A DNA stretch of 64,000 nt from Pirellulales bacterium. GTDB taxonomy: Bacteria; Planctomycetota; Planctomycetia; Pirellulales; UBA1268. Below are positions 48,921 to 64,000 of the stretch, piece by piece. Position 1 is the first letter of the stretch. Each line of letters starts with the position of its first letter. Below the pieces are notes generated by a model. That model was not told the origin of the DNA. It ran no database searches and worked only from the letters and a program-made list of their open reading frames with translations. The translations under genes were made by a program, and so were the position numbers. Location of the stretch: positions 14,155 through 78,154 of the forward strand of contig JBIIDT010000003.1 in assembly GCA_044238145.1 (NCBI GenBank), in the 5' to 3' direction.

Positions 48921-49007
48921 GCCCGCCGTGACCTGGCCCTCGGGTCGGTCGGCCCAAGGGGCGGGTCTCCGCCGGGGCCGAATGGGAGCGGGATCCGGCC
49001 CACGCGA

Positions 49008-50261
49008 TCAGGTATCGGCCCCGGCGTCGCGGAGCAGCTGCACGGTGTGCCGCACGGGGACGTCCGCGCCAAGCCGCGCGAGGTGCATCCGCAGCTGCGT
49101 CATGCAGCCGATGTTGCCGGTCACGGCGACGTCGGCACCGGTGGCGATGATCGCCCGGGCCTTCTCCGCCCCCAGCGCGGTCGCGATCTCCGGCTGGTCG
49201 AGGTTGTAGGTGCCGGCACTGCCGCAGCACAGGTGCGCATCGGCGACCTCGCGGAGTTCGAGGCCGGGGATCGCCCGCAGCAGGTCGCGCGGCTGCCGCC
49301 GGACGCCCTGGGCATTGGCGAGATGGCAGGCATCCTGGTAGGCGACCGTGAGCCGCGTCTCCCGCAGCGGTTCGCGGAGGCCGAGCGCGCCGAGGAACGC
49401 GGCCACGTCCACGACCCGCCCGCGAAACGCGTCGCCGCGGCCCTCGTCGGGAGTGCCCCGGAGCACGTGGTGATACTCGTGCATCGCGGAGCCGCAGCCG
49501 GCGGCCGTGGTCACGACCGCGTCCACGTCGGCGGGAAACGCGTCGAGGTTGCGCCGGGCGCAGGACTGCGCCGCCGCGAGGTCGCCGGTGTGCCAGGCGA
49601 GGCCGCCGCAGCAGCCCTGCCCGCGGGGCACGACCACCTCCACGCCCTCACGGGTGAGCACCGCGATCGTCGCCGTGGTGATGTCGGGCTCGAGCACCTG
49701 CTGGGCGCAGCCCGTGAGCAGCGCCACCCGCGCGCGTCGCGGGCCGCGCGGCGGATGGACCTCGGCCCACGTCTGCCGCGGCGGAAGCGCGGCAGGCAGG
49801 AGGTCGAGCATCGGTCGCAGCGGCGGCGGCACGAGCAGCCGGGCGAGCCGCGTGCCGCCGAACCGCACCGCGAGGCGGAACCGGGCAGGGTAGGGGAGCG
49901 TGCTGGCCGCGAGGAACCGCCGCAGCCGCTCCCACAGTCCGCGGCGGGCCTGCGGCGCCGCGACCGCCCGGAAGGGACTGATCAGGTCGCGGTAGGGCAC
50001 GCCGCTCGGGCAGGCTGGCTCGCACGCCAGGCAGCCGAGGCAGCGGTCGACGTGAGGCTGGGCGTCAACGAACGAGGCCTTGCCCTCGAGCACCTCCTTC
50101 ATGAGCACGATCCGCCCCCGGGGCGAATCCATCTCCTGCCCGAGTTCCTGGTAGGTCGGGCAGGCCGCGAGACAGAAGCCGCAGTGCACGCAGGCCGAGA
50201 CGGCGTCGGCCATCGGCCGGCCGAGCGGCCCGAAGCGGTCGGTGGGAATCTCGTGAAGCAT
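49008..50261 (-). CDS. glcF: Glycolate oxidase iron-sulfur subunit
   Basis: There are two ferredoxin-type clusters, CVHCGFCLAACPTY and CLGCLACEPACPSG, plus CCG-domain repeats (GCCGGL, LCCGSAG). The start was set at the ATG at 50261 (MLHEIP). Confidence 0.87.
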   Translation of the reverse strand: MLHEIPTDRFGPLGRPMADAVSACVHCGFCLAACPTYQELGQEMDSPRGRIVLMKEVLEGKASFVDAQPHVDRCLGCLACEPACPSGVPYRDLISPFRAVAAPQARRGLWERLRRFLAASTLPYPARFRLAVRFGGTRLARLLVPPPLRPMLDLLPAALPPRQTWAEVHPPRGPRRARVALLTGCAQQVLEPDITTATIAVLTREGVEVVVPRGQGCCGGLAWHTGDLAAAQSCARRNLDAFPADVDAVVTTAAGCGSAMHEYHHVLRGTPDEGRGDAFRGRVVDVAAFLGALGLREPLRETRLTVAYQDACHLANAQGVRRQPRDLLRAIPGLELREVADAHLCCGSAGTYNLDQPEIATALGAEKARAIIATGADVAVTGNIGCMTQLRMHLARLGADVPVRHTVQLLRDAGADT

Positions 50262-51205
50262 CAGTCGTCGAGTGTAGGGAAGCGGTGGTCCGGGTCGAGC
50301 GCCATCTTGACGGCCTCCTCGATCGCGTGCCGCGGCCGGCCGCCCGGCCACAGCGGCCCGGCGCCGCTGAGCGTGAGGCCGCGGGGGAGCGGCTCCGTCG
50401 CCAGCGCGAGCGTGCCGGCGCCGCTCACGTGCGCCGCGCGAAATGCCGGCAGCTCGGGGGGCGTGAGGTCGGCCTTGAACCGCCAGGGCGTGTCGCGGAC
50501 GCGGTCCCAGATGGCGCCGTCGACGTCGCGGCCGCCGACCTTGCGGGCCAGCGTCTCGATCGCCCGCCCCGGCCCCGCGAGCCGCACGAGCAGCGTCGCG
50601 CCGCCGGGGGGCACGTCGAGGGCATCGGGCGCCAGCCGCGAACGGGCGAGCCGGGCCAGCGTCTCGGCGGCGAACGGCAGCTCGCGGGTCAGCGTCGCCT
50701 CGGGCCGCGGAAAGACCTTGAACGTCACCTCGCCGATCACGCCGAAGCGGCCCAGGCTGCCGACGAGGAACTTCGGCACGTCGAACCCGGCGGCGTTCTT
50801 CACGACCTTGCCGCCGAGCCGCAGGAGCCGGCCCATCCCGTCGACGAACCGCACGCCGAGGATGAAGTCGCGGATGCCGCCGTAGCGGAACCGGCCGGGG
50901 CCGCTGATGCCGGCGGCCACGGCACCGCCGAGCGTGCCGCCCGCGGCGACGAACAGCGGGTCGAACGGGAGGTATTGGTTCCGCTCCGCCAGCGCGGCGA
51001 CGACGTCGGCCAGCGGCGTGCCGGCGAGCGCCGTGAACGTGAACTCCTCCGGCTCATACTCCACGATCCCGCGGAGGCCGCGGGTCGAGATCTTCACCGC
51101 CTCCACGGCCGAGAGCCGCGGCTTGGTCTCAGCGCCCACGGCGAGCACACGCGGGGCGCTGCGGACGGCGGCGACGAGCTCGGCGAGCGTGGCGGGGGCG
51201 ATCAT
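50261..51205 (-). CDS. glcE: Glycolate oxidase FAD-binding subunit
   Basis: It has a PCMH-type FAD-binding fold ([44 protein letters not shown]). It lies between glcD and glcF with 4-nt and 1-nt overlaps. Confidence 0.8.
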
Positions 51206-52659
51206 TCGCGCGAGATCACTCCCGCCCGCTCCAGCGGGTGCAGCCCGGCCCTGGACAGTGCCGCCGCGCCGGAGGGGAACATCTTGCCCGGGTTGGCGAT
51301 GCCGAGCGGGTCGAAGGCGGCCCGCAGCCGCTCCATGCAGTCGAGCTCGTCGGCGGAGAACATCGCGGGCATGTGGTCGCGCTTCTCGACGCCGATGCCG
51401 TGCTCGCCGGTCAGCGAGCCCCCCATCGCGACGCACATCTCGAGGATCCGCCCGGCGAGGGCCTCGGCCCGGTCGAGCCCGTCCGGTTCGCGTCCGTCGT
51501 AGAGAATCAACGGGTGGAGGTTGCCGTCGCCCGCGTGGAACACGTTCGCCACGCGGAGGCCCGCCGCCCGCGCCATCTCGTCGATCCGGCGCAGCGCCTC
51601 CCCGAGCCGGCGCCGGGGCACGACGCCGTCCTGCACGATGAAGTCGCGGGAGATCCGGCCAACGGCGCTGAAGGCGCTCTTGCGGCCCTTCCAGATCGCC
51701 GCCCGCTCGTCGGCGTCGCGGGCCGGCCGCACCGCCACGGGACCGCTCGCGGCGAGGATCGCATCGAGCTGCTCCCGCTCCACGGCCACCGTCTCCCGCG
51801 GACCCTCGAGTTCCACGATCAGCACCGCCTCGCAGCCGGCAGGGTAGTCGGCGTGCACCGCGGCCCGCGCCGCCTCGATCGCCAGCGCGTCCATGATCTC
51901 GAGGGCGCCGGGCAGCAGGCCCGCCGCGATCACCGCCGACACCGCGTCGCCCGCCTCCTCGAGCGTCCGATAACCGGCGAGCACGGTGTGGAAGCACTCG
52001 GCCGTGGGCAGGAGCTGGAGCGTGATCTCCAGCGCGATCCCGAACAGCCCCTCGTTGCCGGTGAACAGGCCGCACCAGTCGGGGCCGAGCCGCTCGCGGC
52101 TGCCGCCCCCCCACTCGACGACCTCGCCGGTGGCGAGCACGGCCTTGATGCCGAGCACGTGGTTGGAGGTCATGCCGTACTTCAGGCAGTGGGCCCCGCC
52201 GGAGTTGAAGGCGACGTTGCCGCCGATCGTGCACACGCTCTGCGACGAGGGGTCCGGCGCGTAGTACAGGCCGAACGGCGCCGCCGCCACCGTGACCTGC
52301 GTGTTGACCACGCCCGGCTCGACGACGGCGATCCGCTCGTCGGGGTCGAGGCGGAGGATGCGGTTGAGCCGATTGAGGGCGATCACGATCCCGTCGGCCA
52401 CCGGGAGCGAGCCGCCACACAGGCTCGTCCCGCTGCCGCGGGCTACGAACGGGATGGCGAGTTCGCGGCACAGGCGGACGACCGCCACCACCTCGTCCGC
52501 CGTCTCTGGCACGACGACCGCTAGCGGCCTGGCGTGGAACGCGGTCAACCCATCGCTCTCGTAGACGGCGAGTTCCGCCGGCCGCGTCAGCAGCCGGTCG
52601 GGCGGGAGCAGGGCGGCCAGGCGGTGGACGACGGCGGTGTTCGCTGGAGCAAGTGCCAT
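51202..52659 (-). CDS. glcD: Glycolate oxidase subunit GlcD (FAD-linked oxidase)
   Basis: [37 protein letters not shown] and GEHGIG are VAO/GlcD family blocks. Confidence 0.9.
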
Positions 52660-52797
52660 AAATCAGTGATCCTCGCCAACAAGAACGGGAGGCGAAGGGG
52701 GTCGGCAAATGCTCGAGGAGCCTATGGCCGCCTCGGCCATCAGCGACGAGACCTTTGCCGCCCCCAAGCTGGCAATGCCGATGGGTCGCAAAGCCCT

Positions 52798-53916
52798 TTA
52801 GGAGGACCGCAACACCTCCCGCAGCGCCGCGAGCACGAGATCGACGTTCCGCACGGTGGCCCCGTGCCCCATGAGACCGATCCGCCAGGCCTTGCCCGCC
52901 ATCACGCCCAGCCCCGCGCCGATCTCGATACCGTACTCCTCGAGGAGGCGGCGGCGGACGGCCGCGTCGTCGGCGTGCTCCGGCTTATGGATGCAGTTGA
53001 GCGTGTGCAACGATCGCGACGGCACATAGCGGATGCCCAGCGCGTCGAGGCCGGAACGCAGCCGGCGGTGCATCGCCGCATGGCGGGCGATGCGGGCCTC
53101 GAGCCCCTCCTCGAGCACGATCGTGAGCGCCTCGTGGAGGGCGTAGGTCATGTTGATCGGGGCCGTGTGGTGGTAGACGCGGCCGCCGCCGCCCCCGCCG
53201 GTGTAGTACTTCCGCAGCATGGAGACGTCGAGGTACCAGGACTGGACCTTCGATTTCCGCGCGTCCATCGCAGCCAGCGCCCGGTCTCCGAAGCTCACCG
53301 GCGACAGGCCCGGCGGGCAACTGAGGCACTTCTGCGTGCCGCTGTAGATGGCGTCGATGCCCCATGCGTCCACCTTCACATCGTGGCCGCCGAGGCTGGT
53401 CACCGCATCGACGAGGAACAGCGACCCCTTCGCGTGGACGAGGTCGGCGATGCCCTCCAGCGGCTGGTGGGCGCCCGTGCTCGTCTCGGCATGCACGATG
53501 CCGAAGACCTTGGCCCGCGGATGCCGTTCGAGGGCGGCGGCGATCGCCTCGAGCGGGATCGTCTCGCCCCACGGGGCCTCGATGGCGTGCACCGTGGCCC
53601 CGCACCGCTCCATGACGTCCTTCATCCGGCCGCCGAACACGCCGTTGACGCACACGATCGCCTCGTCACCCGGCTCGACGAGGTTGACGGCGAGGCACTC
53701 CATGCCCGCCATGCCGGTGCCGCTGACGGGGAACGTGAGCGGGTTCCTGGTCTGGAACACCTGCCGCAGCATCTCGCAGGTCTCGTCCATGATGGCGAGG
53801 TACTGCGGGTCGAGGTGGCCGAGCGTGGGTGCGGCAAGGGCCCGCAGGACCCGCGCCGAGACGGGGCTGGGGCCGGGGCCGAGGAGGACGCGTTCGGCGG
53901 GAAAGACGGTGGTCAT
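52798..53916 (-). CDS. Class-V aminotransferase (serine/alanine-glyoxylate aminotransferase type)
   Basis: LLGPGPSPV is present, SGTQKCL holds the PLP lysine, and the tail is RIGLMGHGA. The start was set at the ATG at 53916; the 1124-aa track ORF is an extension artefact. Confidence 0.87.
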
Positions 53917-53992
53917 GGCGCGGGGCGGGCTCGCGGGGGCGTTCGTCCGCCGCCCATGATAGCGAGTCGGCCGGCTGTCGCGGGCCCGCCGG

Positions 53993-54139
53993 TCACCGGC
54001 TCTGGCAGGTGCTGCAGATTCTCGCCACCTGCTCGGCGGACCACTTCTGGCAGAGCACGCACTTGCTGCCGGCCTGCGAACTGCACGTGGAGCAGATCCG
54101 CGCGGCATGCTCCGGCTGACTCCAAAGTCTACGGGGCAT
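53993..54139 (-). CDS. Small Cys-rich protein (48 aa, three CxxC pairs); too short to appear in the ORF track
   Basis: The translation is [48 protein letters not shown]. Of the 48 codons, 41 end in G/C, and 35 of the last 37 do, whereas the overlapping track frame has poor third-position GC. ARICSTC occurs twice. The ATG overlaps the last 11 nt of the upstream FGE-domain gene. Confidence 0.6.
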
Positions 54140-56084
54140 CGCGACCGGCCCGCAACGCAGCGACGGTCCCGACCAGCCGGAAGCCCGCGTCGTTGGCCTG
54201 GCGGCTGGCGGCCACCTGCGTGAAGGTCGACTTCCGCAGCGTCACCGCACCGCCCGCCCAGAAGCCGCCGCGCAGGCCGCGGAACTGGCCCTTCGCACCG
54301 TCCAGGTCGTTCCACTGGTAGACGAGGCCGTTCTGGTCGAAGGTGCCGTAGTGGCTGCCGCTCGTGGCGAACGCCCCGACGTCGGTCAGGTAGTTCTGCG
54401 TGGGCGAGAACACGGCCGACTGGGTGACGCAGTAGATCGGGCCGACGAGATAGTTGGCGATCGGTCCGCCGGTGGAGACGGGGTCGTTCGACGGCGGCAC
54501 GTCCTGCTGCGTGGCGTAGAGATGGTAGCCCGGGACACCCCCCTTGTTCGGCGTGAAGTAGGCCGCCTTGTACCACTCGTTCTCCGTGGGAATGAAGAAG
54601 GTCGGCGCGGACCGCGTGTTGGGGTTGACCGCGTTGCGGGGCACGGCCTTGCGGCTGCTCGCCTGCCGCAGGTCGTAGGCGCCGTTCTCCGTCGTGCGGG
54701 CGTTCTGCCGGCCGGCGGGCTGGCCGTTGGCCATCCAGTTCGCGAACCGGGCCGCGTCGAACCAGCTCACGTAGGTGATCGGCCGGTTCGCCGCGGAGCC
54801 GGCGTTGTTCATCACGCTGTAGGAGCGGCGGCCGTTCCGGCCGACCCGCGTGATTCCGGCCACGGCCAGGTCGGTGGCCATCCGCGTGTCGTACAGGCCG
54901 TGGGTGTCGGTGCGGGCCACGGCGTTGAGGAAGGCCACGTACTGCCCGATCGTGACGTCGGTCCGCGCGATCGCATACTCGTAGGCGACGGCCCCGAAGC
55001 CGGTGGCCGCGTCCGCGGCGTTGCCCGCGTCGCCGACCGTGACGAGGTCGACCACGACCGCCGCCGCCTCGGCGGGCAGGGCCGCCAGCCGGAACCCGCC
55101 ATTGGAGCCGACGCCGGACGCCGCGACGCCGAGACGGTAGTCGGAGGCGAGGTAGGAGACGAACGAGGTCCACGCGCCACCGCGGAGGATCACGGTCTCG
55201 GTCGGCTCGCCCGTCGACTCGAGCAGCTCCCAGACGTTGCCGTTCTGGTCGAAGGTGCCGTAGGAACTCGGGCTCGCCCGCATCGCGCCCACGTTCGTCA
55301 GGTAGTTCTGCGCCGGCTCGATGAGCGGCTCCTGCGTGACCGTCATCGCGCCCGTCGCGAAGATGTAGTTCACCTGATTGGCCGCGTCGCCGATCACGTT
55401 GCCGGGGTCCGCGTCGCTGCGGGTGGCGTAGCGGTGGTAGCCGCCGCGGCCACCGCGGGCCGCCGGGTCGTAGTAGGCCGCCTTGTACCACTGGTTCTCC
55501 GACGGCAGGAAGAACGTGGGGGCCGCGCCGGTGTTGGGATTCACCGCGTTCCGCGGCGGCACCGTGCCGGGCACCGCGGCGAGGTCGTAGGCGCCGTTCT
55601 CGGTGGTGGCCGCGGTCTGGCTGCCGACGGGCTGGCCGTTCGCCATCCAGTTGGCGAACCGGGCCGCGTCGAACCAGTCGACGTAGGTGATCGGCCGGTC
55701 GGCGGGGCTCGTGGCCCCCGCCGGCGTGATGCCGAACGGCCCGATGACCGCGTAGGTGTAGCCGCCCGGGCTGCCGGAGCGGTCGATGCCGGCCGAGGTC
55801 CGGTCGTCTCCATTGTCCATGGCGGTGTGGTACAGGCCGGCCAGGTCGTCGGCGGCGACGGCGTTGAGGAACGCCGCGTATTCGCCGATCGTGACCTCGT
55901 ACTTGCCGATCCGATACGCCTCGTCGACGCGGCCGAAGCCGGTTTTCGGATCGGCGGCGTTGCGCGGGTCTTCCACGGGCACGAAGATCGGGTCGATCAC
56001 CGCGAGGGCGATCCGCGGCTCGAGCCGCTCGACCGCGGGCGGGCGGGGGCGGGACCGGCGGCGGGCGGAAGCGGGGCGCGGCAT
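54129..56084 (-). CDS. Tandem FGE-sulfatase (SUMF1/EgtB-like) domain protein with an LEPR-type N-terminus
   Basis: There are two homologous halves. Each has PITYV(D/S)[32 protein letters not shown] and a (L)RGG(A/F)W motif. The N-terminus is [29 protein letters not shown]. The start was set at 56084; the track ORF starts at 56165. Confidence 0.85.
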
Positions 56085-63833: not shown

Positions 63834-64000
63834 TCAGAAGTTCGCGTCGCACCCCGTGCAGACGTCGCCCACCATGTGCAGATGGTCGTGGTCGATGTAC
63901 ACGACTTCCTGGCAGTCCTCGTCCACGAGCGTGTGCGGCACCGGCCAGCCGACCCGCGTCACCTCCTGGAAGTAGACGGTGCACTTGTAGTGGGCGTGGT
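63834..64000 (-). CDS. C-terminal fragment of a Cys/His-rich protein of unknown function (5' end outside the window)
   Basis: The hand translation is ...HAHYKCTVYFQEVTRVGWPVPHTLVDEDCQEVVYIDHDHLHMVGDVCTGCDANF*. Nearly every codon ends in G/C. It is too short in the window to appear in the ORF track. Confidence 0.6.
   Translation of the reverse strand, partial: HAHYKCTVYFQEVTRVGWPVPHTLVDEDCQEVVYIDHDHLHMVGDVCTGCDANF

Follow-up and report, generated by a model that had tools for sequence, protein, structure and literature searches.

Does the short gap between a gene for a protein with two FGE-sulfatase-like domains and an aminotransferase gene hide a small cysteine-rich gene of its own? The question arises in a Pirellulales contig, of which a stretch of 64,000 nucleotides (hereafter the window; G+C content about 72%) was analysed. 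Between the two genes runs a minus-strand open reading frame (ORF) of 48 codons. The original prediction read it as an intact small gene, translationally coupled to the FGE-domain gene, and speculated that its product could be a substrate, a metal or zinc-ribbon partner or a chaperone in FGE-related cysteine chemistry. The features discussed below are collected in Table 1.

Table 1. Coordinates of the features at the locus, in window positions. A slash marks the breakpoint in the two junction sequences.
Feature	Position	Strand	Remarks
Protein with two FGE-sulfatase-like domains, 678 aa	54129..56165	minus	Upstream neighbour
ORF of 48 codons plus stop	53993..54139	minus	Very probable remnant: 5'-truncated Cys-repeat gene, joined in frame with a chance ATG
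ATGCCCCGTAGACTTTG (final FGE codons, stop and 6 nt)	54123..54139	minus	Identical in the intact allele
Deletion junction, 10 nt, GAGTCAGCCG, in place of 199 nt	54113..54122	minus	From the alignment with L086
Second half of repeat unit 1, with orphan CxxC	54068..54112	minus	HMM positions 11-25, 26.6 bits
One complete repeat unit	53996..54067	minus	HMM positions 1-24, 51.5 bits; DNA identical to unit 3 of the intact allele
Deleted-allele junction			GACTTTGGAGTCAGCCGGAGCATGCC; GACTTTG/GAGTCAGCCGGAGCATGCC
Intact-allele junction			GACTTTGAAAACGG; GACTTTG/AAAACGGTTCGCG
Antisense ORF, 36 aa, called by JGI in four assemblies	54009..54119	plus	Probable shadow frame; third-codon positions in common with the remnant
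Class-V aminotransferase (alanine/serine-glyoxylate type)	52798..53916	minus	Downstream neighbour, 76 nt past the remnant stop

Coding signal of the 48-codon frame

The ORF is present between the FGE-domain and aminotransferase genes with the translation given in the original prediction, and the sequence facts behind that prediction could all be reproduced. G or C ends 41 of the 48 codons, and 35 of the last 37. The ATG lies within the final 11 nt of the FGE-domain gene, the heptapeptide ARICSTC occurs twice, and the six cysteines are arranged as three CxxC pairs. The two copies of ARICSTC are separated by 5 differences in 21 nt, every one silent, including a TCC versus AGC choice for serine.

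At 72% G+C, open frames of 48 codons are nothing unusual, and codon-usage scoring gave this one no support. Under a codon model derived from 21 confident genes within the window, it scored -0.27 bit/codon, versus +0.44 to +0.87 for the confident genes, and ranked 32nd among the 95 window ORFs of 40-60 aa. The scoring did not discriminate it from its antisense frame. GC3 alone also fails to pick the strand, because the antisense frame has the same third-codon positions. No SD-like site was detected near the ATG, and nothing there resembled the GGAGAG that precedes the native start described below. The maximum 15-residue hydropathy of the product was 0.67, versus 1.8-2.8 in all ten full-length members of the family to which it was traced.

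Direct searches with the 48-aa peptide were similarly unproductive. Against Pfam and NCBIfam, it gave only sub-threshold, cysteine-driven zinc-finger noise. In an index of 5.8 billion clusters, a word-index search for homologues returned no protein sharing words with it, and an exact look-up of the product found no gene on record, the ORF being uncalled in any assembly.

The best codon score among the window ORFs of 40-60 aa (+0.62 bit/codon) belonged to a different frame, a 42-aa ORF at 63834..63962(-) with the translation VTRVGWPVPHTLVDEDCQEVVYIDHDHLHMVGDVCTGCDANF. This could be a genuine small gene, or else a piece of a gene lying close to the edge of the window.

An intact allele in a sister strain and in an outgroup

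A phmmer search with the ORF product against 1.84 billion representatives returned 11 matches. The best was P0121, a protein of 117 aa (E 4e-33, 85% identity), to whose C-terminus residues 12-48 of the ORF product correspond. Four short contigs (L086-L089), drawn from other data sets, carry the gene for P0121. These contigs are 99.1-100% identical to the window across the 3' end of the FGE-domain gene, and about 99.5% identical on the 5' side of the aminotransferase gene, a figure counted by hand from the global alignment sequences after discounting the part of the BLAST alignment in which repeats were mis-paired.

In L086, the FGE stop is followed by 49 nt containing GGAGAG, an ATG, a leader, three repeat units, a stop and 76 nt up to the aminotransferase start. 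The spacer between the remnant stop and the aminotransferase gene is equal in length. Across the intact alleles the gene starts 49-51 nt past the FGE stop and has its own SD-like site. P0121 itself is made up of a leader (MQLGLRPMSRRAAVATAVVVIAGVAAIAVGQG...) followed by three tandem units of the form GSKC-x-LC-x-KWS-x-E-x3-RICSTC-x-S-x-A. At the DNA level, TRF detected on L086 a period of 78 nt in 2.8 copies, with about 78% mutual identity between the units.

Two outgroup contigs (L090 and L091), about 88-89% identical to the window at the nucleotide level, keep the order FGE-domain gene, Cys-repeat gene, aminotransferase and carry the full three-unit gene, whose product is P0132 (118 aa). Because the outgroup has the full gene, the intact form is ancestral and the form found in the window is derived. 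The synonymous/nonsynonymous analysis that had been proposed for the short frame revealed purifying selection on the repeat region of the intact gene: between L086 and L090, dS was 0.365 and dN 0.036, giving a dN/dS of 0.10, with a comparable 0.08 for the aminotransferase gene. The leader diverged freely between the same two contigs, as is usual for signal peptides. Judged by these sequence comparisons, the intact gene is a real, selected protein-coding gene.

The coding periodicity of the 48-codon ORF is inherited from this bona fide gene, and the GC3 bias is concentrated in the last 37 codons because codons 1-9 are not native coding sequence. The claim that the frame is coding therefore holds for its ancestry, with a real periodicity that comes from a genuine gene, but probably not for its present state: what remains is a truncated piece, not an intact small gene.

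Scans of metagenome contigs with a back-translated 13-residue pattern and with P0121 gave no match; this collection apparently lacks the population concerned. Another contig carrying part of the locus, of 610 nt (L095 1-610; ENA ERZ27251498 k141_266376), fuses the 3' end of the FGE-domain gene and the Cys-repeat leader in frame with the C-terminal half of GroES, and continues into the N-terminus of GroEL. Its fusion protein is P0133, and the contig represents either an assembly chimera or a third rearranged allele at the Cys-repeat locus.

Anatomy of the truncated allele

Global alignment of the window with L086 displayed two gaps, of 199 nt and 78 nt, with a net loss of 267 nt. The first stretch absent from the window (L086 460..658) comprises the SD-like GGAGAG, the ATG, the hydrophobic leader and the first CxxC knuckle of unit 1. 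The second (L086 704..781) is one 78-nt unit, so that unit 2 is missing between the half unit and the full unit that survive.

The ORF is thus a composite. The end of the FGE-domain gene and the 6 nt past its stop provide codons 1-5 of the ORF together with bases 1 and 2 of codon 6. Then come the 10-nt junction, which may be filler or derive from a W-S-x segment of a unit that has diverged, the half unit and the complete unit. The half unit differs from unit 1 of L086 at 3 of 45 nt, and a hand count over its last 34 nt put it closer to unit 1 (2 mismatches) than to unit 2 (7). The surviving complete unit carries no nonsense or frameshift mutation.

The ATG of the ORF lies within a string, GATGCCCCGTAGACTTTG, that is found in both alleles. 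Read from this ATG, L086 gives ATG CCC CGT AGA CTT TGA, that is, MPRRL followed by a stop. Translational coupling had been proposed from the overlap of this ATG with the FGE-domain gene. The overlapping frame is not conserved, and the idea is not supported: because the same ATG opens only MPRRL-stop in the intact allele, the overlap is a by-product of the deletion.

We propose the following history. The intact gene, as found in closely related strains, encodes a protein of 117-118 aa in which a hydrophobic N-terminal leader precedes three tandem 26-aa cysteine units. A 199-nt deletion took the ribosome-binding site, the ATG, the leader and the first knuckle of unit 1, leaving 10 nt at the junction. 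One 78-nt unit was also lost, most simply via slippage or unequal exchange in the sequence common to the starts of units 2 and 3. The 1.5 units left over came, by chance, into frame with an ATG from the final codons of the FGE-domain gene (GAT GCC CCG TAG), giving a 48-codon ORF that runs across the FGE stop. The 10-nt junction and the three substitutions in the half unit exceed the change seen in the flanks, and the history may be more complex than one clean deletion.

Altogether, the 48-codon ORF is very probably a recent, 5'-truncated remnant of a Cys-repeat gene, and most likely a non-functional pseudogene. Its lack of function is deduced from the loss of the leader and of the native ribosome site and from the one unpaired CxxC. 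No decay is visible because the deletion is too recent, as the flanks of about 99.5% identity indicate. The ATG of the remnant is placed for re-initiation after the FGE stop, and some translation of the ORF by re-initiation there is conceivable.

A family of leader-bearing cysteine-repeat proteins

Nine of the 11 phmmer matches were clear family members, with P0131 in addition. The remaining candidate, P0122 (484 aa, low-complexity repeats), was set aside as spurious. P0123 to P0130 are 91-148 aa long and display a hydrophobic N-terminal leader followed by two to three units. P0143 and P0149, two near-identical cluster members, have the leader and a single unit. Because such one-unit members exist, the structural unit can be defined as C-x2-C-x11-C-x2-C (26 aa), with natural variation in copy number. 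In the family alignment 15 columns are invariant, 12 of them Cys and 3 Arg. A unit HMM built from 28 units scored 74.2 bits overall on the window frame and recognised both its full and its half unit (Table 1), which shows the CxxC/ARICSTC pattern to be a conserved protein motif.

Family members contain 4, 8 or 12 repeat cysteines; the window remnant has six, equivalent to 1.5 units and not to a whole number. The remnant shares unit homology with the P0121-like proteins and occupies the position orthologous to that of P0121 and P0132 (same flanks in L086-L089, same order in L090). It differs from them in having neither leader nor native start, in retaining 1.5 of three units, and in starting mid-unit, with non-homologous codons 1-9.

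P0131 (ENA, on a 2337-nt contig) is a leaderless protein of 55 aa whose two repeats run in a permuted register (KLCSAC-x7-C-x-KC-x-NWAG). Forms of the module that lack a leader may therefore be viable.

The intact proteins would be exported mini-proteins, with the N-terminal hydrophobic leader as the putative export signal; in P0121, the mature part would run from about residue 34 to 117. Each unit would either bind one metal ion, in a zinc-ribbon or treble-clef-like Cys4 arrangement, or form two disulfides. This reading draws on the Cys spacing, on borderline matches to DZR_2 and PHF5A, and on a low-confidence model that places a helix at each second CxxC. The structure prediction that had been called for was run on P0121 with AlphaFold, from an alignment of eight sequences. 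It returned a short helix starting from each second CxxC, at a mean pLDDT of 54.8, and the model was too uncertain for a fold search.

In their C-x2-C ... C-x2-C spacing, the units are similar to zinc ribbons (DZR_2 PF18912, DZR PF12773) and to PHF5A-type Cys-knuckles. P0121 matched DZR_2 at 27.2 bits (cut-off 27), a borderline and cysteine-driven score. The window ORF stayed below the Pfam gathering thresholds, with 14.4 bits for DZR_2 (cut-off 27) and 16.6 bits for DZR (27.3). The family profile matched PHF5A chains at an E value of about 1e-6 (7e-7), again cysteine-driven. Unlike zinc ribbons, where they are unusual, the Cys-repeat family bears export-type leaders, and disulfides are equally possible.

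SCREPs are defined as secreted proteins of 20-500 aa with at least four Cys and tandem homologous Cys-rich domains, and unrecognised domains occur in 69.5% of prokaryotic SCREPs (ScrepYard, PMC9885460). The intact Cys-repeat family fits this operational definition and would count as bacterial SCREPs (PMC9885460), in a class that is operational and not a homologous family; the window remnant, which lacks a signal peptide, is not a SCREP. With six Cys in about 48 residues, the window peptide also recalls SCIFF (TIGR03973), one of the Cys-rich RiPP precursors. As a test for SCIFF or ranthipeptides, it was compared with NCBIfam, a library that presumably includes the SCIFF model TIGR03973, and gave no match at E <= 1. 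No radical-SAM gene was present among the immediate neighbours (the FGE-like gene, the aminotransferase gene and glcDEF).

The family is rare and has no curated annotation, its members being called 'hypothetical protein' where they are named, and a literature search returned no description of it. At one locus (L092), the genomic context includes families that we take to be typical of Planctomycetota.

The FGE-like neighbour and the proposed functional link

A short Cys-rich peptide encoded beside an FGE-fold gene resembles the situation of FGE substrates. Aerobic FGE carries a pair of conserved active-site cysteines in its FGE domain. The FGE-like protein of the window, for which the JGI annotation gives a shorter form of 651 aa, contains only two Cys, at positions 17 and 579, so neither of its FGE-like domains can hold the catalytic pair. 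Against the NCBIfam models for EgtB and SenA, it scored far under the cut-offs. Its N-terminus, inspected by eye, is Arg-rich with a hydrophobic stretch, and on this reading is likely an export leader.

Homologues of the FGE-like protein are found at 75-81% identity in freshwater Pirellulales/Planctomycetaceae MAGs, and at 45-57% in several proteobacterial MAGs. The full-length homologues in the lower range (within L019-L068) come from MAGs labelled Methylococcaceae, Burkholderiales, Neisseriales, Legionellaceae and Aestuariivirga. These data suggest horizontal spread of the protein among freshwater bacteria and a non-FGE, perhaps binding, role.

The search downstream of FGE-domain genes that had been recommended was performed with tblastn of the peptide and with the unit HMM on 78 loci of FGE homologues. 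None of the 78 carried a family member, and nothing rose above chance. The sequence downstream of the closest FGE homologues differs from locus to locus and is unrelated. Three loci (L001, L009, L034) share a conserved stretch with the translation SLGRSPKRAVYSGISVAMRVRPHVAAIPRTVSPG, about 60-170 nt past the FGE homologue; at two others (L005, L011), the downstream sequence appears tRNA-like by eye.

Adjacency of the FGE and Cys-repeat genes is limited to the narrow lineage of the window. Among the distant family members on contigs with informative neighbours, P0123, P0125 and P0129 lie next to unrelated genes (a GDSL lipase, an MMPL/ACR transporter, a W_rich_C protein and AbiEii), and the 1.2-kb contig of P0127 has a single neighbour, without a family match. 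A regular-expression search for the motif C/S-x-P/A-x-R found no occurrence in the window ORF, P0121 or P0132. The negative loci, the unrelated genes beside distant members, the two Cys of the neighbour and the absent motif together speak against the functional link to FGE that had been suggested. The idea of a substrate or partner is thus unsupported; for the intact gene in this lineage, it keeps a narrow opening.

Alternative explanations

The explanation closest to the original prediction, a functional, small, cytoplasmic, Cys-rich (zinc-binding) protein coupled to the FGE-like protein as its substrate, partner or chaperone, is improbable. It could draw on the intact frame, on the ATG within the last 11 nt of the FGE-domain gene and on the one complete Cys4 unit, but this architecture results from a very recent deletion, and the ATG is non-productive in the intact allele. 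Moreover, the ORF has no SD-like site, has a negative codon score and has been called in no assembly. The FGE/Cys-repeat pair is adjacent in three related lineages, which would favour a partnership; against it stand the lack of a catalytic Cys pair and the likely export leader (read by eye) in the FGE-like protein, the absence of a CxPxR motif and the empty record of the 78 FGE-homologue loci. The leaderless 55-aa relative P0131 also counts in favour of a functional peptide.

Slightly less probable again is that a new leaderless 48-aa cytoplasmic peptide, serving for example in metal binding, is re-initiated at the FGE stop, or that the intact exported protein is a dedicated partner or substrate of its secreted FGE-fold neighbour. 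This second alternative, if true, would amount to a new two-gene module in this planctomycete lineage.

We regard it as very unlikely that the deletion is an assembly artefact, produced by repeat collapse in a genome that really carries the three-unit gene. Tandem 78-nt units of such mutual similarity can be collapsed by short-read assemblers, and contigs with the full gene are known at about 99.5% identity; a collapse would nevertheless account for the lost unit and not for the lost leader. An artefact is disfavoured because the deleted allele is identical, to the exact junction, in four independently assembled JGI contigs from different samples, and because the left junction falls in unique sequence just past the FGE stop, not in the repeat. 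The source samples are JGI 3300042914, 3300042946, 3300042540 and 3300042924, and SRR11245131-33.

The antisense 36-aa ORF has scarcely any chance of being the true gene. It has the same high GC3 as the remnant, a more gene-like GC1 > GC2 and a codon score of +0.18 bit/codon, but its sequence mirrors one that is selected on the other strand (dN/dS 0.10), and ARICSTC is preserved by silent changes in the minus-strand frame only. Between L086 and L090, no conservation of the antisense frame was seen, the changes being silent in the sense frame. All the family evidence also lies on the minus strand, an indirect argument given that the minus-strand frame served as the query. JGI calls such antisense mini-ORFs at both ends of the aminotransferase gene, the 36-aa one and one of 30 aa at about 52709..52801(+); both are probably shadow-frame artefacts typical of high-GC genomes.

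Just as negligible is a non-coding role for the interval, as leader, riboswitch or sRNA of the aminotransferase-glcDEF operon: the 212-nt gap does precede a metabolic operon, but the best Rfam match reached only E 4.2 (14.9 bits versus a gathering score of 80), the folding energy was no better than that of shuffled sequences (z = -0.40), a promoter/terminator scan found no promoter-like or terminator-like sites, and the aminotransferase orthologues have gaps of 35-123 nt and other neighbours.

The aminotransferase gene is the first of a conserved aminotransferase-glcDEF cluster (with glcD/glcE/glcF-like genes, 49000..53916(-); L079-L085), and its protein is 83-90% identical across Planctomycetota and Verrucomicrobiota, which is unusually high. 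Its upstream neighbours differ in every genome examined. The orthologues on L083-L085 have other upstream neighbours, with gaps too short for an ORF of this kind. One contig (L082), aligned with window positions 54250..49023, is at least 99.5% identical to about 51850 and 80-86% identical beyond, in the glcD/E region, which suggests that either the strain is recombinant or the contig chimeric.

Significance of the locus

The reading of the frame as a recent remnant carries a caution for other genomes. At 72% G+C, a short ORF with a good GC3 bias and a motif that recurs, and whose start codon overlaps the upstream stop, can mimic a coupled micro-gene and yet be a fresh deletion remnant. Here, the nature of the remnant was revealed only by comparison with a sister strain, and automated pipelines mis-annotate the site by way of the antisense shadow ORF. 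The novelty is modest: the frame belongs, in truncated form, to a small Cys-repeat family for which no curated annotation exists. What the locus exposes is that family itself: rare, leader-bearing mini-proteins built of one to three tandem 26-aa Cys4 repeats and kept under purifying selection.
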